Shown: positions 24,727 to 33,445 of the stretch, in pieces | Layout: every line of letters begins with the position of its first letter | Position numbering within the stretch: position 1 is the stretch's first letter | NCBI GenBank assembly: GCA_963805545.1 | Contig: CAWDUU010000001.1 | Coordinates: forward strand, 331,051 to 395,050 | Length of the DNA stretch: 64,000 bases | Source: an uncultured Actinomycetes bacterium | GTDB taxonomy: Bacteria; Actinomycetota; Thermoleophilia; Gaiellales; JAICJC01 | Direction: 5' to 3' | Translations under genes and position numbers: made by a program | The notes under the pieces: model-generated | Told to the model about the DNA's origin: nothing | What the model saw: the letters and a program-made list of their open reading frames with translations, nothing else | Database searches by the model: none

Positions 24727-25245
24727 ATGATCAAGGTTCTCGTCGCCGGGCTCATCGGAACCGTTGCGGGTGTGGTCGCGATGATCGTGGTTATCGTGCT
24801 GGCCGGCACGACGACGAGCGGCGCATCGAGCGTCGGGCTGGGCGCCCTGCCGCTCTCGACCGCCTCGCTCACGGGCGGGGCGACCTCGACGCCGACCTCC
24901 ACTCCGCCGCCGACCAGCGGCGGCGGGACGTCCACCGGTGGAGCGACGGGGAACGCCGACAACGGCAAGACGATCTTCACCGGGAGCGCCGGTTGCGGCG
25001 GCTGCCACGCGCTGGCCGCGGCCGGGACCAGCGGCGCCGTCGGCCCCGCGCTCGACGACCTGAGCGGCGACGCCCAGAAGGCCGGCGAGCCGCTCGATGC
25101 CTTCATCAAGTCGTCGATCGTCGACCCCGGCGCGTACGTGCCGTCGGGCTATCAGGACGGCGTCATGCCGACGAACTTCGGCACGACGCTCTCCGCGACC
25201 GACATCGACGACCTCGTGGCGTTCATCTCCGCCTCCCAGAAGTAG
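24727..25245 (+). CDS. Membrane-anchored monoheme cytochrome c
   Basis: N-terminal TM helix, T/G-rich linker, CGGCH, GPAL, VMP axial Met. Confidence 0.92.
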   Translation: MIKVLVAGLIGTVAGVVAMIVVIVLAGTTTSGASSVGLGALPLSTASLTGGATSTPTSTPPPTSGGGTSTGGATGNADNGKTIFTGSAGCGGCHALAAAGTSGAVGPALDDLSGDAQKAGEPLDAFIKSSIVDPGAYVPSGYQDGVMPTNFGTTLSATDIDDLVAFISASQK

Positions 25246-25255
25246 GCTCCTCGGC

Positions 25256-26872
25256 GTGACCGTTGCGCCGCCCTCCGTCCGCACCGGCGCCCACGCCCTC
25301 GTCGAGGTGCTCGAGGCGCACGGCGTCGAGGTCGTGTTCGGGCTGCCGGGCATCCACGCCCTGCCCGTCTGGGACGCGCTGATCGGCTCGCCGATCCGGC
25401 GGGTCGTCGTCCGCCACGAGCAGGCGGCGGGCTTCGGGGCGGTGGGCTACGCGCGCACCGGCGAGAAGCCCGGCGTCTACCTGACGTCGACCGGGCCGGG
25501 CGCGTTCAATTCGCTGGCGGCGCTCTCCGAGGCCGACGCTTCGAGCGCGCCGGTGCTGCATCTCACCTCACAGATCCCGACCGACCTCGTGGGCGCGGGG
25601 CGGGGGTACCTGCACGAGAGCCGGGGCCAGTCACAGGCCTTCGCGGCCGTTTCGCGGTTTCACGCCCGGCCGACGACCCCCGAGGCGCTGGCGGCGGCGG
25701 TCGCCGAGGCCTTCGCCCACATGGCGCTCGATCCGGGGCCGGTCACGATCGAGGTGGCGACCGACGTGATGGCGGCACCCGCGCCGGAGGGGGCGCCGCC
25801 TGTGGCGCGGGTCACGCTCCCAGCGCCCGACCCGGACGCGGTCGCGCGCGTCCGGGCGATGCTCGAAGAGGCGGGCGCGCCGATCGTGTGGGCGGGCGGC
25901 GGCGCGCGCCGCGCGGCGGGCGACGCGCAGGCGCTGGCCGAGGCGCTCGACGCGCCGGTCATCACGACCTACAACGGCAAGGGCACGCTCCCGACCGGGC
26001 ATCCGCTCCACGCCGGCTCGTCGGTGGAGGAGCCGTCGATGCGCCACCTCGTCGAGCGGGCCGACCTGTGCCTGGCGCTCGGCACGCGCTTCTCGCAGGA
26101 GACGACCGCGAACTGGACGCTTCCCATCCCGGCCGCGCTCGTCCACGTCGACCTCGACCCGGGCCGGTTCGGGCGCACCTACCAGCCGGCCGAGGCGATC
26201 GTCTCGGACGTCGGCCTCTTCTGCCGCGCGCTTCTCGACGGCGGCGTGCGCGCCGGCTCGCGCGACGGCGAGGCGGCCGTGCGGGCGGCCATCCAGGGCC
26301 GGAACGCCGAGGTGGCGGCGCAGGGCGTGCCCGACGAGATCGAGCTCATGCACGCGCTCGACGACGCGCTGCCGGAGGACGCGATCGTGATCGCCGACAT
26401 GACGGTCTGCGCCTACTGGGCGGCGCTCTACCTCGACGGCAAGCGGCCGGGGTCGTTCGTGTACCCGGCGTCCGGGGCGCTGGGGTGCGGCGTCCCGCTC
26501 GCGCTCGGCACCGCGGCCGCCCACCCCAACCGGCCGACCGTTGCCATCGTCGGCGACGGCGGCTTCCTGATGGGCGGCCACGAGCTCCTCACGGCTGCGG
26601 CCGAGGGGCTGCCGTTCGTGACGCTCGTCGTCAACGATTCGGCCTACGGCATCCTGCGCAACTACCAGGAGACGATGTTCGGGCGGACGGTCGCGGTCGA
26701 ACTGAACGCGCCCGACTTCGCGGGGCTGGCCGCCGCGTGCGGAGTCCGGTACATCCTTGCCGACGGCATTCGCGGCGTGGGTGCCGCGCTGGGCGAGGCG
26801 CTGGCGGACCGGTCAGGGCCGGTGCTGGTCGAGCTCAAGGTCGCGCTCAAGGCCCCGGGACAATCGGTCTAG
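25256..26872 (+). CDS. ThDP-dependent enzyme, acetolactate synthase large-subunit-like
   Basis: VFGLPG, RHEQAAGF, TGPGA, GDGGF...VVND. Confidence 0.9.
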   Translation: MTVAPPSVRTGAHALVEVLEAHGVEVVFGLPGIHALPVWDALIGSPIRRVVVRHEQAAGFGAVGYARTGEKPGVYLTSTGPGAFNSLAALSEADASSAPVLHLTSQIPTDLVGAGRGYLHESRGQSQAFAAVSRFHARPTTPEALAAAVAEAFAHMALDPGPVTIEVATDVMAAPAPEGAPPVARVTLPAPDPDAVARVRAMLEEAGAPIVWAGGGARRAAGDAQALAEALDAPVITTYNGKGTLPTGHPLHAGSSVEEPSMRHLVERADLCLALGTRFSQETTANWTLPIPAALVHVDLDPGRFGRTYQPAEAIVSDVGLFCRALLDGGVRAGSRDGEAAVRAAIQGRNAEVAAQGVPDEIELMHALDDALPEDAIVIADMTVCAYWAALYLDGKRPGSFVYPASGALGCGVPLALGTAAAHPNRPTVAIVGDGGFLMGGHELLTAAAEGLPFVTLVVNDSAYGILRNYQETMFGRTVAVELNAPDFAGLAAACGVRYILADGIRGVGAALGEALADRSGPVLVELKVALKAPGQSV

Positions 26873-27249: not shown

Positions 27250-27741
27250 ATGACGAGGTTCTGGAGCAGATGGCTTCACCGGCGCACGCCGAGCGTTGCC
27301 GTCGACGCGCTCCCGGGCCACGAGAGCCTGCGTCGAATGATCGCGGACGGGCATGGGGCCGGCTATGAAGCAGTCGAGTCGCTTGCCGAGGCGCGGGCAC
27401 GGGAGGGCTTCGCGGTTGTCATGCAGGGCGATGACGGCGGGTCGATTTACCTGACCTGTCCAGCCGCTGCAATCCGCTGTGACGAAGCAACGCTCCAGCA
27501 TCTCCTCGAGGACCTCGACGCGCGCTGCTGGAACGACCGTGACTCCGCCCGGCTCTTCTACGAGCGGCTTCCGGTTGGATCCAGGGTGGCGGGTGGCACA
27601 GGCGGTGGCCTCGTCACCGAGGGAGTGTGGCTCCACCCGCGGATCGAGAAACAAGGGCTTCAGGCACAGGTCCAGGCGATCATCGCCGGGGAGCGAGACC
27701 GGATCGACCAGCCCCGCCGCCCCGGTACAGTGATCCCATGA
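27250..27741 (+). CDS. Hypothetical protein
   Basis: GDDGGSIYLTCPA...RLFYERLPVG...GGTGGG...WLHP; ATGA overlap with the next gene. Confidence 0.65.
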   Translation: MTRFWSRWLHRRTPSVAVDALPGHESLRRMIADGHGAGYEAVESLAEARAREGFAVVMQGDDGGSIYLTCPAAAIRCDEATLQHLLEDLDARCWNDRDSARLFYERLPVGSRVAGGTGGGLVTEGVWLHPRIEKQGLQAQVQAIIAGERDRIDQPRRPGTVIP

Positions 27742-29037
27742 AGGCTCCCGAGCGCGCCGACTACTCGATGACCGCCAGCCCCGGCTCGCCGCTGCCCGTC
27801 GCCGTGCGGGCGGAGGGGTGCTGGATCGAGGACGCCGATGGCCGCCGCTACCTGGACGCGTGCGGCGGGGCGATGGTGATGCTGCTCGGCCATTGCCACC
27901 CGCGGGTGGTGGAAGCGCTGCGCGCGCAGGCCGGCGAGCTGACGTTCACGTATCGCTTCTCGTTCCGGAACGAGCCGATGCTCGACCTCGCCGAGCGGAT
28001 CGCGGCGCGCGCGCCGGGCGACCTGGAGTGGTGCTTCTTCAACTCGTCGGGCTCCGAGGCCAACGAGTCGGCGCTGCACCTCGCGGTGCTCTACTGGGAG
28101 CTCCTCGGGAAGGCCGGCAAGGTCGAGTTCCTCTCGCGCGTCACCTCCTACCACGGCTCCACCATGGGCGCGCTCTCGCTCTCCGGCTCCCGCTGGCGGG
28201 CACCGTTCGAGCTGCTCCTTCGCAAGTACGCCGTCGTGCCCAACAGCGATACCGCGGAGGAGGGTGCCGCGGCGCTGGAGGCCGCAATCCTCTCGCGCGG
28301 GGCCGAGCACGTGGCCGCCTTCGTGGTCGAGCCGGTGACCGGCTCGTCGGGCGCGGCTGTGCCGCTTCCGGGCGGCTACCTGGAGGCCGTGCGCGAGGTG
28401 TGCGACCGCCACGAGGTGCTCCTCGTCGCCGACGAGGTCATCACCGCCTTCGGCCGCACCGGGCGCTGGTTCGCGGTCGAGCACTGGAATGCCCTCCCCG
28501 ACGTCATCACCTTCGGCAAGGGGCTGGGCGGCGGCATCGTCCCGCTCTCCGGGATGGTCGCATCGCGGCGGCTGCGTGAGGTCGTCGAGAGCGCGCCCGG
28601 CGGCTTCTCGTACGGCCACACCTTCTCGGGCAACCCGCTCGGCTGCGCCGTCGGCTCGGCCGTCATCGACGTGATCGAGGAGGACGGGCTCGTGGAGGCC
28701 GCCGAGTCGCGCGGGGCGCTCGCTTCGCGCCAGGCTCGAGGAGCTGCGCGGCCGCCACCCGATCGTCCACTCCCTGCGCGGCCGCGGCCTGCTCCAGGGG
28801 GTCGAGCTGCGCGCGCCGGACGGCGCCCGCTTCCCGGCCTCCGCCGGCGTCTGCGGCCGCGTCGCCGCCGCCGCCAAGGACGAGGGCCTCATGATCTACT
28901 CCTGTCCGACGCCGGTCGGCACCGAGCACATGGACGCGCTCATGCTGGCCCCTCCGCTCATCCTGACCGACGCCGAGGTCGACGAGATCGCCGCCCGCCT
29001 CGACACCGCCCTCGCGCGGGTCGAGTCGTCGCTGTAG
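27738..29037 (+). CDS. Class III PLP aminotransferase, frameshift near 28720
   Basis: YLDACGG, SGSEANE, SYHGST, DEVITAFGRTG, FGKGLGGG; the C-terminus (RGRGLL...LAPPL) is in the +1 frame. Confidence 0.88.
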
Positions 29038-29082: not shown

Positions 29083-29964
29083 ATGCCGGTGGTCGCAGTT
29101 CCGATCGCGCAGCTTCTCGGCGCGCTTCTCGCCCTCGCCGCGATCGCGAAGATCCGGCGGTTCGGTGCGTGGCGGGCCGCGCTCGACGGCTACCGCCTCG
29201 TGCCGTGGCGGGGCGTTGTCGCGGTTGCCGTCCCCGCCGCCGAGCTCGCCGTCGCCGGAGGCCTCCTCGCCGGCCTCGCCGTCTCCGCCTGGTGCGCCGC
29301 GGCGCTGCTCTCGGTCTTCACGCTCGTCCTGGCCGCCGAGCTCGCGCGCGGCTCGGCGCCGCCCGCATGCGCGTGCCTGCCGTGGTCGGGCCCCCCGGGC
29401 CGCCTGACGCTCGTCCGGAACGCCGTCCTCGTCGCCGCGGCGCTCGCCGCCGCCGAGGGCGCGACACCTCGCCTCGGGCGCGGATTCTGGGAGGCGTCCT
29501 ACGCCGTCCTCTGGCTGGCCGTCGCCGGGCTCGTGGTGCTCGTGCTCTCGCTCTACCGGCAGGTGGGCGTCCTGCACCTGCGGCTGGGGCCGCGCGGGGC
29601 GCTCGAGGAGGAGGGCGAGGGGCCCGAGCTCGGCGCGGCGATCGACCACCCGGCGGTGCCCGCGGGAAGGGCGGCGCTGGTCGCGTTCACGTCGGCCGGC
29701 TGCCCTGTGTGCCATCAGATCGTGCCGGGCCTGCGCGTGCTCGAGCGCGATCCGGCGCTTCGGGTCGTCCACGCCGCCTACGAGGACGCGGAGGGGCCGG
29801 AGCTGCACGCCGCCTTCGACGTCCCGGGGACGCCGTACGCGGTGTACCTCGACGCGGCAAGCGTCGTTCGGGCCAAGGGCACCGTGAACACGCTCGAGCA
29901 GCTCGAGAGCCTGGTCGCCGCCGGCGGCAGCCGCGCCCAGGAGGCGGTCGGCGATGTGGCGTGA
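29083..29964 (+). CDS. MauE-MauD fusion (methylamine-utilisation membrane domain + thioredoxin fold)
   Basis: AIAKIR...AELAVA...ACAC; LYRQVGVLHLRLGPRGAL...GP; CPVC; PYAV...AKGTVNTLEQLESL. Confidence 0.88.
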   Translation: MPVVAVPIAQLLGALLALAAIAKIRRFGAWRAALDGYRLVPWRGVVAVAVPAAELAVAGGLLAGLAVSAWCAAALLSVFTLVLAAELARGSAPPACACLPWSGPPGRLTLVRNAVLVAAALAAAEGATPRLGRGFWEASYAVLWLAVAGLVVLVLSLYRQVGVLHLRLGPRGALEEEGEGPELGAAIDHPAVPAGRAALVAFTSAGCPVCHQIVPGLRVLERDPALRVVHAAYEDAEGPELHAAFDVPGTPYAVYLDAASVVRAKGTVNTLEQLESLVAAGGSRAQEAVGDVA

Positions 29965-30539
29965 CGGCGAGGACATGGCCCGCGACGTCGCCTCCCGGCA
30001 CAGCCGCTCCGGGTTCCTGAGCCGGATCGGCGCGCCGATCATCGCGTGGCTGGCCGGGCCGCTCGCCGGCGCGTCGTCGCTGGGGCCCGAGAGCACCCGC
30101 TACTACGGCTTCTGCGGCCACACGTTCACCACCAAGCCGTGCCCGCACCCGTTCCCGAAGCTGCCCCGCATCGACCGCCACGGGTATCCGCTGCGGCCGT
30201 CCGACGGGCATCCGGTCGACAACCTCGGCCGGCCCGTCGACGCGTCGGGGTTCGCGCTCGACAGCGCCGGCAACCGCCGCGTCGGGCCCGACGGGCGAAC
30301 CGGTGCCGCGCGCGCCGCGCACGCGCCCCTGCCAGGACTGGGTGCCGGACATCTACGGCTTCCACACCCGCTTCGACGGCGCCTGGTACCGCTGCTGCAA
30401 CAACCAGATCAGAAAGCTGGTCGACTGCTGCGCCCACCACAACCGCCGTATCAACGGCGACGCGGCGCTGGTCGGCTACTGCTTCCACGGCCGCAAGGTG
30501 TTCTGCGTCCTCTACTACGACACGAAGGTGCCGTGCTGA
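29954..30539 (+). CDS. Cys-rich MauA-like (amine dehydrogenase small subunit-like) exported protein, frameshift at ~30294
   Basis: Tat-like SRSGFL leader; 10 Cys; GAWYRCC...LVDCC...GYCF...VFC. Removing one G from GACGGGCGAA joins the two ORFs. Confidence 0.7.
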
Positions 30540-32008
30540 GGCGGCTCGCGGCGGCGGCCGGCGCGGGCGGCGCGGGCCTGGCGCTCGGCGTCGGGGTCGC
30601 GCCCGATCCCGGAGCGGCGATCGCCGCCTGCGCGCTCCTCGCGGGGGTGTCCGGCGCCTGGTCGCCCTGAGGGCTGGCCGTGGCCGAGACGGTCGCCCCC
30701 GTCGTGCACGGGGTGAGGAGATGGCTGGTGGCGGTGGCGGCGTTCGCGATGGGATCCGTCGCCGCGGGTGCGGCCCTGGGCTGGGGCGTCGGCTGGGCGG
30801 CCGGGCGGGCCGGCGGCGGAGGCGCGCACGGCGCCTGGGCGGCCGCGGGCATCGCAGCGGCCTACGCCGCCCGCGAGGCAGGGCTCCTGCGCCTGCCGGT
30901 GCCGCAGCTTCGCCGCCAGGTGCCCCAGCGCTGGCGCGAGGTGCTGCCGCTGCCGGCGACCGCGTTCCTCTACGGCGCCGGCCTCGGCATCGGATTCGTC
31001 ACCTACGTGCCGGTGGCGACGCTCGTGGCGGTGACCGCGGCGATCGCACTCGCCGACCCCGGCGCCGGGATGGCCGCCCTCGCGGCGTTCGGGGCCGGGC
31101 GCGCGGCCGTCCTCGTCGCGGCCACGGCCGGCCTTCACGACTGGGACGAGGCGGCCGACCGCTTCGAGCACGCCGGGAGCTGGCTGCGGGAGCGGGGCGG
31201 GGCGCTCCGCACGGCCAACGCCGGCGCCATGGCCGCGCTGGCGGGCGTGCTCGCCGCCACGGCGACGCCGGCGGCGGCGGCCGCCGCGGTGCAGATCGAC
31301 CTCGGCTCGCGCCACGTCGCCGACCCGTCCGCCGGGCCGGCCGGCGTGCTGGCGTGGGATCAGGTCGCGGGCGGCGTCGTGCAGGGCAGGCTGCGCGTGA
31401 ACGGCGTCGTGAACGACCTTCCCGGAAAGACGCCCGACGTCGACGGCGCCCGGGTCGTCGTCGACACCGGCTCCGCGTTCCAGATCATCGACACGGGGAC
31501 GCTCGCCGTCATGCGCACCCTCCAGCTCAAGGGCACCGAGCCGGCGCTCTTCGACCACTGGCTGGTCTACCGGCGGGTCACCGGCAGGCGGCGGCTCATC
31601 CTCTTCGACCTGGGGACGAACCAGTCGAAGGTGATCGCAAGGGTCAAGATGCGAAGCGACCTGGGCGAGCCCGACATCTCGGGCAGGCGGGTCGTCTACT
31701 CGGTGACCGGCCACGGACGCAGCTCCATCCGGCTCTACCGCATCGACCTGGGAGTCACGAAGCGGATCGCGCAGACGCCGATCTGGTCGTACAGCCACGT
31801 GTCCGTCAGCGGCGACACCGTGGTGTACGTGCGCCAGGCATCGAGCGGCGCAGCCGTGTGGCGGCTCCACCTGCCGAGCGGCCGGGTGGCGCGCGTCCAC
31901 CGCGTCGCCGGCGGCACCGGACACGCGCTCTGGGAGACGGCCACGAACGGCTCGTCCATCTGGTTCACGGTCTACACCAGGTCGCAGTCGCTCATCTGGC
32001 ATGCTTGA
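30533..32008 (+). CDS. MauF homologue with in-frame UGA (putative Sec, WSPUG) fused to a C-terminal beta-propeller
   Basis: GTG 30533 overlaps the upstream stop; GAWSP-TGA(30668-30670)-GL; RRQVP, FLYGAGLGIGFVTYV; repeated P-x-x-x-G-x-x-VVY blades. Confidence 0.75.
30693..30716 (+). promoter_or_regulatory. Putative bacterial SECIS hairpin
   Basis: TCGC-C-CCCGT [CGTGC] ACGGG-GTGA: 9 bp with one bulge; loop begins 33 nt after the UGA and has G at position 2. Confidence 0.55.
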
Positions 32009-32011
32009 GGC

Positions 32012-33445
32012 GTGGCAACCGCGCCTCCGACCTCGGGCGAGCTGCGCGCCGCCCTCGAGCAGGCCGCCGACTGGTGCGCGTCGTACCTCGACCGGGTCGG
32101 CGACCTGCCCGTGCTGGCCCGGGTCGAGCCGGGCGAGATCGCGGCTGCCCTGCCCGAGCACGCGCCGGTGGCGGGCGAGCCGCTGGCCGACATCCTGGCC
32201 GACGTCGACCGCGTCCTGATCCCCGGCATCACGCACTGGAACCACCCGGGCTTCATGGCCTACTTCGGGATCTCCGGCTCGCCGCCGGGCATCCTCGGCG
32301 AGACGGTGGCGGCCGCGCTCAACGTGAACGCGATGCTGTGGCGCACGTCGCCGGCCGCGACCGAGCTCGAGCAGCGGGTGCTGCGCTGGGTCGCCGAGCT
32401 GACCGGCCTTCCGGCCGGCTGGTTCGGCGAGATCACCGACACGGCGTCGGCCTCGACGATGTACGCGCTCGCCGCCGCCCGCGAGGCGGCCGGGCTCGAC
32501 ATCCGCACCCGCGGGATGGCCGGCCGGGCCGACCTGCCGCCGCTTCGCATGTACACGTCCGACCAGGCCCACTCGTCGGTCGAGAAGGCCTGCATCGCGC
32601 TCGGGATCGGCCAGGAGGGGCTGTGCAAGATCCCGTCCGACGCCGCCTTCCGGATGCGGGCCGACCTGCTGGCCGAGGCCGTCGCCGCCGACGTCGCCGC
32701 GGGCGTGCGGCCGCTCGCGGTCGTGGCCACGGTCGGGACGACCTCGACGACGAGCATCGACCCCGTCCCCGAGATCGCCGACGTGTGCGCCCGCCACGGC
32801 ATGTGGCTGCACGTCGACGCCGCCTACGGCGGCTCCGCGGCGGTCGTGCCCGAGATGCGCCACGTCCTGGCCGGGTGCGAGCGGGCCGACTCGGTCGTCG
32901 TGAACCCGCACAAGTGGCTCTTCACGCCGGTCGACTGCAGCCTGCTCTACACGGCCCGGCCCGCCGACCTGAAGGCGGCGTTCTCGCTCGTCCCCGCCTA
33001 CCTGGAGACGCCGGAGGACGGCGGCGTCGTGAACCTCATGGACTACGGACTCTCGCTCGGCCGCCGCTTCCGCGCGCTCAAGCTGTGGATGGTGATCCGG
33101 GCCTACGGCGCCGAGGGGCTCGCCGCGCTCATCTCGGGCCATATCGAGCTCGCCCGGCGGCTGGCGGCCGCGATCGAGGCGGAGCCGGGCTGGGAGCTGC
33201 TCGCCCCGGTGCCGTTCTCGACCGTCTGCTTCCGCCGCCACCCGGACGGGGTCGACGACGAGGCGGAGCTGCGCCGCCTGAACGAGGCGATCATCGAGCA
33301 CGTGAACGCCGACGGCCGGGCGTTCGTCTCGCACACCGACCTCGGCGGGCGCCACGCGATCCGGGTGGCGATCGGCAACATGGCGACGACCGCCGAGCAC
33401 GTCGACACGGCCTGGGAGCTCATGCGCGAGGCCGTCGCCGGCTGA
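32012..33445 (+). CDS. Group II PLP decarboxylase, aromatic-L-amino-acid decarboxylase-like
   Basis: PGITHWNHPGFMAYF, SPAATELE, SDQAHSS, HVDAAYGG, NPHKW, GRRFRALKLW. Confidence 0.92.
   Translation: MATAPPTSGELRAALEQAADWCASYLDRVGDLPVLARVEPGEIAAALPEHAPVAGEPLADILADVDRVLIPGITHWNHPGFMAYFGISGSPPGILGETVAAALNVNAMLWRTSPAATELEQRVLRWVAELTGLPAGWFGEITDTASASTMYALAAAREAAGLDIRTRGMAGRADLPPLRMYTSDQAHSSVEKACIALGIGQEGLCKIPSDAAFRMRADLLAEAVAADVAAGVRPLAVVATVGTTSTTSIDPVPEIADVCARHGMWLHVDAAYGGSAAVVPEMRHVLAGCERADSVVVNPHKWLFTPVDCSLLYTARPADLKAAFSLVPAYLETPEDGGVVNLMDYGLSLGRRFRALKLWMVIRAYGAEGLAALISGHIELARRLAAAIEAEPGWELLAPVPFSTVCFRRHPDGVDDEAELRRLNEAIIEHVNADGRAFVSHTDLGGRHAIRVAIGNMATTAEHVDTAWELMREAVAG

Follow-up and report, generated by a model that had tools for sequence, protein, structure and literature searches.

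Methylamine dehydrogenase (MADH), aromatic amine dehydrogenase (AADH) and quinohaemoprotein amine dehydrogenase (QHNDH) share one design: a small cysteine-rich subunit on a beta-propeller. The MADH genes of Paracoccus denitrificans form the mau cluster (mauFBEDACJGMN), which we retrieved as a comparison set. Among its products are the light chain MauA, the propeller MauB and the accessory proteins MauD, MauE and MauF, the last of which has, as far as we know, been without a known function since the mau genes were described. MauE can substitute for DsbB in Escherichia coli through its CXC motif, thioredoxin fusions account for 8.2% of MauE entries, and MauA is present in only ~10% of the species that contain MauE (preprint 10.64898/2026.03.05.709764). 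Here we analyse a stretch of 64,000 nucleotides (the window) from an uncultured member of the Gaiellales (contig CAWDUU010000001.1), in which a three-gene cassette on the + strand places a small cysteine-rich protein, protein X, between homologues of these accessory proteins. By protein X we mean the repaired product of 29954-30539 (+), numbered from its second methionine (MARDVAS..) and 187 residues long. Probably, a MauDEF-type cassette for export and disulfide formation has in X a new client. X would then take the place of MauA within a reduced Mau cassette in which MauB, MauG and amicyanin were not recognised; we regard it as such because its leader is of the MauA type and because homologues of MauE, MauD and MauF adjoin it. 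The features are:

29083-29964, + strand: MauE-MauD-like fusion, with an N-terminal MauE membrane domain (C-A-C) and a C-terminal thioredoxin-like domain (C-P-V-C)
29954-30539, + strand: gene for protein X, 194 codons from the ATG at 29954 and 187 from the second Met at 29975, lying here in two frames
29954-30085, + strand: MauA-type twin-arginine translocation (Tat) leader of X (..ARDVASRHSRSGFLSRIGAPIIAWLAG..), identified by hhalign against MauA precursors and by a leader-only hidden Markov model (HMM)
30284-30289, no strand: GGGCCC run containing a base that all close relatives lack, the apparent frameshift behind a truncated open reading frame (ORF)
30303-30539, + strand: C-terminal core of X, with W at 30384-30386, D-C-C at 30423-30431 and Y-C at 30477-30482
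30533-32008, + strand: MauF-propeller gene, encoding a MauF-like polytopic membrane domain (~30533-31270) and a ~6-bladed beta-propeller (~31307-32005)
30668-30670, + strand: in-frame TGA, candidate selenocysteine (Sec) codon, aligned with the conserved Cys of MauF (T-W-S-P-C-G-Y-S)
30697-30713, + strand: hairpin CCCCGU-CGUGC-ACGGGG, resembling a selenocysteine insertion sequence (SECIS), its first base 26 nt past the last base of the UGA

A conserved cassette of Mau-type genes

The genes for the MauE-thioredoxin fusion, X and the MauF-propeller protein stay together, with overlapping start and stop codons, while their flanks change completely, and the third of them, the MauF homologue, was found in 85 loci. 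Other Actinomycetota have a second architecture, consisting of a MauD-like gene, X and a MauF-MauE fusion of ~372 aa, with no propeller (loci L090, 4887-7119, and L091, 4794-7119; proteins P0440-P0465). Since the same four components are kept there in different fusions, MauD, X, MauF and MauE make up the constant core, and the propeller, being absent from this second lineage, is best regarded as an addition specific to Thermoleophilia. As in the mau cluster, homologues of MauE, MauD and MauF are present and the order is E-D-small subunit; the accessory proteins also retain the CxC of MauE, the CxxC of MauD and the W-S-P-C-G of MauF. They differ from those of the mau cluster in being fused (MauE to MauD and MauF to a propeller, or MauF to MauE in the other lineage), in having TGA as the codon for the MauF Cys in roughly half of the lineages with an X cassette, and in serving a client that is not MauA.

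The leader of X resembles those of MauA. When X was aligned by hhalign with 54 MauA precursors, a match of 97.4% probability (E 1.4e-11) was obtained over 46 columns, all of them in the leader, where ..E-x-L-x-R-x-x-A-x-R-T-S-R-R-S-F-L-x-R-L-G.. of MauA faces ..L-A-x-x-L-A-x-x-x-T-R-R-G-F-L-G-R-x-G.. of X and the N-region before the twin arginine is included. We also ran an HMM made from MauA leaders alone over 8,555 six-frame ORF segments from the window and 88 related loci. It retrieved X N-termini only (3e-9 for the best, 1.2e-5 for this window), the next ORF, not an X, having an E of 0.3, while generic Tat models barely match the X leader. In the clade of the window the Tat motif reads S-R-S-G-F-L (29975-30030), the family consensus being T-R-R-G-F-L.

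Upstream of X, the product of 29083-29964 has a MauE domain at residues 5-123 (PF07291, E 7.3e-18) and weak thioredoxin-like matches at residues 194-278, and resembles MauD with an E of 1e-19 that is under the cutoff of the model (TIGR02661). In view of the preprint evidence on MauE as a substitute for DsbB, this protein is best read as a predicted DsbB/DsbA-like disulfide-forming pair, dedicated to the translationally coupled X.

The downstream gene, 30533-32008, is cut by gene callers at its in-frame TGA into ORFs of 45 aa (30533-30670) and 442 aa (30680-32008). Its membrane domain is homologous to MauF by BLASTP (E 5e-10, with 33% identity over 185 residues, and a further match at 1e-8). 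An HMM of this domain finds MauF with 92.6 bits (E 1.3e-24 at a notional database of one million sequences) and matches none of the negative controls, which were MauE, MauD, MauB and an unrelated transporter. The two proteins share T-W-S-P-C-G-Y-S (MauF) or A-W-S-P-C-G-F-S (downstream protein), and a second motif that reads L-R-V-P-Y-P-Q-R-R-A-Q-V-P..L-Y-G-L-S-L-G-L-D-Y-L-T-Y-V in MauF and L-R-L-P-V-P-Q-L-R-R-Q-V-P..L-Y-G-A-G-L-G-I-G-F-V-T-Y-V in the downstream protein. No Pfam or NCBIfam model covers this MauF-like protein. Its C-terminal 230 residues are modelled as a propeller of about six blades (pLDDT, the predicted local distance difference test score, >90 over residues 210-442), whose nearest match by Foldseek is TolB (1.5e-8); by BLASTP it has no similarity to MauB, which is a 7-bladed propeller.

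Other components of the MADH system were looked for around X. With a search for ORFs containing two CxxCH motifs, which detected the MauG of P. denitrificans as a positive control, no MauG-like di-haem ORF was found in the window or the 88 related loci, the regions to which the search was restricted; a missing MauG had been remarked on in a first-pass annotation of the window, and this holds across the related loci too. Likewise no cupredoxin, and so no amicyanin, is present among the annotated neighbours of X, to which that search was confined.

Protein X and its gene

The first-pass annotation had taken 30303-30539 as a MauA-like subunit gene in its own right. The ORF (translation MPRAPRTRPCQDWVPDIYGFHTRFDGAWYRCCNNQIRKLVDCCAHHNRRINGDAALVGYCFHGRKVFCVLYYDTKVPC, with the W codon at 30384, D at 30423 and Y at 30477) does contain GAW(30384)YRCC...LVD(30423)CC...GY(30477)CF...VFC as described, and yet it does not stand alone: it is the last 78 codons, the C-terminal part, of the 194-codon X gene, whose N-terminal part lies in another frame. 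Read from 29954, this upstream part (MWRDGEDMARDVASRHSRSGFLSRIGAPIIAWLAG...YYGFCGHTFTTKPCPHP...NRRVGPDGR) begins with a signal peptide and continues as a cysteine-rich N-terminal region, and the two frames joined are 91% identical, end to end, to the 194-aa database protein P0001. The start of the X gene overlaps the upstream gene by 11 nt and its stop overlaps the GTG of the next gene.

The break in frame maps to the GGGCCC run at 30284-30289, where blastn places a single 1-nt gap in six of six close relatives (L004, L009, L011, L012, L013 and L016). In tblastn, the intact X orthologue of L004 is accordingly split between frame 2 (29954-30298) and frame 3 (30285-30536). The two halves retain ~90-93% protein identity to intact orthologues and contain no additional stop codon. 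In tblastn with the genes of the short-read contig L004, eight neighbouring genes of the window proved unbroken. A class-III aminotransferase gene at 27738-29025 is also frame-split, near 28714, relative to its intact 432-aa L004 orthologue, and this second apparent indel, within 1.6 kb of that in X, suggests an indel-prone assembly. Broken genes also occur on sister contigs named contig_N, presumably long-read assemblies; short-read contigs, L004 among them, show no such breaks. Many of the "long" database members of the X family (P0132, P0160, P0168, P0244, P0245, P0178 and P0205) are frameshift-garbled entries from error-prone assemblies. We had considered whether the long forms of 324-864 aa were domain fusions and rejected this, as they are frameshifted translations that run on through the genes for MauE/MauD, X and MauF. 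Given the second split gene nearby, the broken genes on contig_N contigs and the frameshift chimeras among database proteins, the frameshift of X in the window is most likely an assembly indel rather than the mark of a pseudogene.

Homologues of X number 1183 at E<=1e-3, and the family extends over at least 584 GTDB species genomes, nearly all of them metagenome-assembled genomes of Gaiellales, Gaiellaceae, Solirubrobacterales and other Thermoleophilia. The Gaiellales and Solirubrobacterales are abundant in soil and seldom cultured. The family is compact (294 representatives at the 50% identity level), and no Pfam domain was found in any of its members. By its sequence X is predicted to be a secreted protein of ~190 residues (~145 when mature) belonging to an uncharacterised family.

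We aligned 112 members of 52-91% identity. The ten mature cysteines (C47, C56, C119, C140, C141, C151, C152, C169, C177 and C187) are invariant, and so are H49, W137, R139, D150, R158, N160, G161, D162, G167 and Y168. Near the N-terminus this gives the motif F-C47-G-H49-x-x-T-T-x-x-C56-P, and further on two C-C pairs. The blocks W..RCC, DCC, RINGD and GYC can still be read in those intact members that have diverged furthest (45-49% identity), and the motifs persist in the homologues of a second actinobacterial lineage. So many invariant polar residues in one protein suggest a site for catalysis or for specific binding.

The AlphaFold model of X has pLDDT >86 over residues 50-187 (block means 87-96, core >90). 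It begins with a knot around F-C-G-H..C-P, continues at residues ~68-115 (window ~30176-30320) with short hairpins that repeat G-x-P-[VI]-D-x-x-G, and then forms a helix (118-127), a hairpin (132-141/144-153), an irregular loop (R-I-N-G-D..G-Y168-C) and a last strand (174-186). In the core, W137-Y-R-C-C and L-V-D150-C-C lie on the two arms of this hairpin and are followed by the invariant loop R158-I-N-G-D-A-x-L-x-G-Y168-C169. Since the register of the hairpin pairs W137 with L148 and sets D150 opposite the invariant G135, W137 and D150 may lie next to each other, on a common face of the sheet. The hairpin repeats resemble the DUF3659/plectin-type repeats of the giant proteins P0208 and P0229. 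As homologues of the whole of X these two were rejected, for their ten to sixteen matches all fall on profile positions 71-119 and come from the hairpin-repeat motif only; judged by their Pfam domains, they appear to be eukaryotic plectin/DUF3659-repeat proteins.

The mature domain of X compared with MauA

In the first-pass annotation W57, D76 and W108 of MADH had been mapped by eye onto the W, D and Y of X, so that a Tyr would replace the second tryptophan of the tryptophan tryptophylquinone (TTQ) cofactor. The MADH landmarks quoted for this (W57, D76-C77-C78 and W108-C109-F110) are right for the P. denitrificans light chain (1mg2_B). On the side of X, there is one invariant Trp, W137, with the D-C-C motif, and the residue at the place proposed for the second Trp, a place set by the by-eye alignment only, is the invariant Tyr; the variation of this residue, Y168, that was to refute the first-pass idea is not seen among the 112 members, at 45-49% identity or in the second lineage.

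The mapping itself found no statistical support. Neither the repaired X nor the 78-aa ORF matches any Pfam or NCBIfam model at E<=0.1. The MauA model PF02975, which is present in every MauA homologue found, matches none of the 112 X members at E<=10, and TIGR02659 gave no match either. Weak matches of X to DEPS-1 OB-fold, RZ zinc finger and Rieske Tat signal models were set aside as noise. The X family profile produced only chance matches against PDB sequences (E>=0.9), and MauA scored -1.8 bits against it in hmmsearch with --max. We also compared X with MauA by hhalign in four ways: as a single sequence, as mature profiles, in global mode, and as C-terminal halves together with a reversed decoy. 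In none of them was there a signal outside the leader. The mature domains, those of the 54 precursors on the MauA side, reached 0.3% probability, global mode returned no alignment, and the C-terminal halves gave a 7-column "vDCC/RDCC" piece with a score of 14.8, compared with 12.7 for reversed MauA. The structural search agreed with these results: against 350,542 PDB chains, Foldseek, a method weak on small, irregular, disulfide-rich folds, found nothing at E<=0.001 (best E 0.97), no MADH or AADH chain was among its top 50 for the X model, and the NTF2/SnoaL-type matches at E ~1 were discarded as noise. As the decoy scores alike and the other searches are null, the W/D/Y mapping is indistinguishable from a chance likeness between two cysteine-rich proteins. 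The term MauA-like is therefore apt for the leader and the gene setting of X and fails for its mature domain, which belongs to a different family from MauA, or has diverged beyond recognition, and has no structural relative in the PDB.

What X and the MauA/AauA light chains have in common can be listed nonetheless. The proteins are exported, small and rich in cysteine, and their long leaders share a conserved N-region ahead of the twin arginine; both genes follow mauE and mauD and are linked to mauF; and in both a Trp lies on a beta-hairpin near a D-C-C motif. On the other hand, X has ten cysteines and MauA twelve, a Tyr is found in X where the second TTQ Trp was placed, X has ~50 extra residues of short hairpin repeats, and its cassette, in which MauG, amicyanin and MauB were not recognised, occurs in Actinomycetota, mostly Thermoleophilia.

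Other protein-derived Trp quinones offer a further comparison, namely the cysteine tryptophylquinone (CTQ) of QhpC, the gamma subunit of QHNDH, and that of LodA/GoxA; in QHNDH it is located in a small cross-linked subunit on a beta-propeller subunit. X differs from these proteins in having no sequence match to them (profile against PDB), in its export route and in having no radical-SAM, flavoprotein or peptidase maturases nearby.

A candidate selenocysteine in the MauF homologue

In 44 of the 85 loci, of Gaiellales type and including the window, the codon that aligns with the conserved Cys of MauF is TGA, in frame within ..G-A-W-S-P-TGA-G-[LFVM]-[SAT]-[MV]-[VI]-E-T... The remaining 41, mostly from Solirubrobacterales, have TGC or TGT, and TAA or TAG occurs in none of the 85. 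Loci with TGA include L001-L004, L006, L009-L021 and others, and also L090 and L091, whose MauF-MauE fusions belong to the other lineage.

The hairpin at 30697-30713 goes with the TGA codon. At least five of its six core pairs are kept in 41/41 distinct TGA sequences as opposed to 0/21 Cys-codon sequences, and in a count over seven pairs 87.4% of cells are paired, four pairs are changed on both sides, and 0/500 shuffles did as well. L090 and L091 carry a hairpin (CCCCCGU-GGUCU-ACGGGGG) at the same offset. A GU is found in the loop, which in L090/L091 is GGUCU, and both this G-U and the distance from the UGA agree with the rules for bacterial SECIS elements. The signal comes from the comparative test only, as single-sequence folding was not significant against shuffles; no SECIS family of Rfam matched 30500-30900, and ARAGORN found no tRNA gene in the window. 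The residue 13 positions past the Sec/Cys (His in the window, 30707-30709) is always His or Cys, within P-V-V-H-G or P-A-V-C-G in TGA lineages and G-P-T-G-H in Cys lineages. The hairpin includes the codon of this residue, and the change between H and C covaries with that between V and A on the opposite arm of the stem.

These alignments suggest that the MauF-like neighbour of X is an undescribed selenoprotein family with Sec at the position of the MauF Cys. Like thiol-oxidoreductase selenoproteins that exist in Sec/Cys pairs, it has an in-frame UGA aligned with the conserved Cys of its homologues and, in the UGA forms only, a hairpin 26 nt downstream. It differs from them in being a MauF-like membrane protein, a family not named in a 2026 review of prokaryotic selenoproteomes or in the BSepDB paper, in which keyword checks found no mention of MauF or methylamine-utilisation proteins. 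A literature search returned nothing relevant on MauF as a selenoprotein or on selenocysteine in Thermoleophilia. The alternation of Sec and Cys would mark the conserved W-S-P-C-G cysteine of MauF as redox-active.

Flanking genes

In the clade of the window only (synteny with L001-L004), the cassette is flanked by genes for a monohaem cytochrome c (24781-25242), a thiamine pyrophosphate (TPP)-dependent enzyme (25277-26869), the class-III aminotransferase (27738-29025) and a pyridoxal phosphate-dependent decarboxylase (32012-33445). These genes could form an amine or amino-acid pathway. We considered them as part of the cassette and rejected this, as they are not conserved with X outside this clade.

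Discussion

We propose that a long twin-arginine leader of the MauA type would direct the export of X, and that the co-translated MauE(CxC)-MauD(CxxC) fusion would then oxidise the ten invariant cysteines of X, five disulfides being the probable outcome. X may also be handled by, or docked on, the MauF homologue, which in this lineage would have selenocysteine at the conserved active-site Cys. In Thermoleophilia the extracytoplasmic propeller might serve as a membrane-tethered docking surface that keeps X at the cell surface, which would be sensible if, as we assume, the hosts have no outer membrane. The small subunits of MADH, AADH and QHNDH would find an echo in such docking.

Several points weigh against this proposal. 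The role given to X would follow from its neighbour genes alone, and its invariant R139, R146, D150, R158, N160, D162 and Y168 look like an active site, leaving room for a cofactor or a catalytic activity that the proposal does not account for. Docking on the propeller is not a general mechanism, the second lineage having no propeller, and the Sec/Cys of the MauF-like domain may lie on either side of the membrane, depending on the topology of that domain. The twin arginine of X reads R-S in the clade of the window. Export by the Tat route normally means folding or cofactor loading in the cytoplasm, which is awkward to combine with disulfides formed after export, a paradox that X shares with MauA. 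Finally, the extra base at 30284-30289, if real, would make this copy of X a pseudogene.

That last point leads to the improbable alternative that the X gene of this genome is decaying and that its motifs have no present function here. The extra base does break the reading frame; still, the indel falls in a homopolymer run, both halves remain ~90-93% identical to intact orthologues with no more stops, another gene, at a distance of 1.6 kb, has a frame break of the same kind, the broken genes are those of contig_N contigs while short-read ones (L004) are intact, and X "proteins" in databases are often frameshift chimeras. Another alternative would have X hold a metal or iron-sulfur centre, with some of its cysteines and H49 as ligands and the Tat leader reflecting loading in the cytoplasm. 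The leader, the invariant F-C47-G-H49-x-x-T-T-x-x-C56-P and the two C-C pairs are in keeping with this, and the Sec/Cys and His/Cys pair of the MauF-like neighbour could bind soft metals. We nevertheless think a metal centre unlikely, as X is translationally coupled to a disulfide-forming MauE-thioredoxin pair, contains no known Fe-S or metal-site motif and has no Pfam match. Moreover, a leader of this type does not call for cytoplasmic loading, since MauA has it and receives no cofactor in the cytoplasm.

A cofactor in X can be pictured in two forms. In one, the main idea of the first-pass annotation, X would be a divergent MauA homologue in which W137 and Y168 form a cross-linked quinone cofactor independently of MauG, with D150 as the catalytic base. 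W137, D150-C-C and Y168-C are indeed invariant, W137 and D150 may share a face of the sheet, the leader and the surrounding MauD, MauE and MauF homologues are those expected of a MauA, and MauG was not found nearby. However, mature X has no likeness to MauA or AauA in sequence, profile or fold, the motif match equals that of the reversed decoy, and neither MauG, a LodB/GoxB-like flavoprotein nor QhpD/QhpG is conserved beside X. A single invariant His (H49) is also too few for a self-processing copper site of the kind that makes topaquinone (TPQ) or lysine tyrosylquinone (LTQ), and we give this form little credence. In the other, X would carry a new cofactor based on W137, cross-linked to Y168 or to a cysteine and formed without MauG, with the Sec/Cys of the MauF-like protein acting in its biogenesis or in redox cycling; this too seems a slim prospect. 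X is no less likely to be a cofactor-free, disulfide-rich protein with a new function, the second option of the first-pass annotation, than a quinone-bearing one; a catalytic or binding protein of this kind is somewhat favoured because no known quinone-cofactor maturase is linked to X and because invariant His residues are too few for copper self-processing.

Returning to X as a client of a Mau-type cassette, what is new here is probably the combination of a Mau-type maturation cassette with a novel client and a new selenoprotein, in three genes whose annotation has so far gone no further than "MauE". The MauD/E/F machinery, known only as a set of helpers of methylamine dehydrogenase, would also serve a second, structurally different client, in agreement with the recent evidence for MauE as a disulfide-forming enzyme of general use. 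A redox-active Cys in MauF would be the first mechanistic clue to the role of this protein that we know of, and is a testable hypothesis. If X is cofactor-free, it would represent a new fold of a secreted protein, with five disulfides and a maturation system of its own. If instead it proves to carry a W137-based cofactor, it would define a new quinoprotein-like enzyme class among Actinobacteria that are abundant in soil, and MauF would gain a part in the chemistry.

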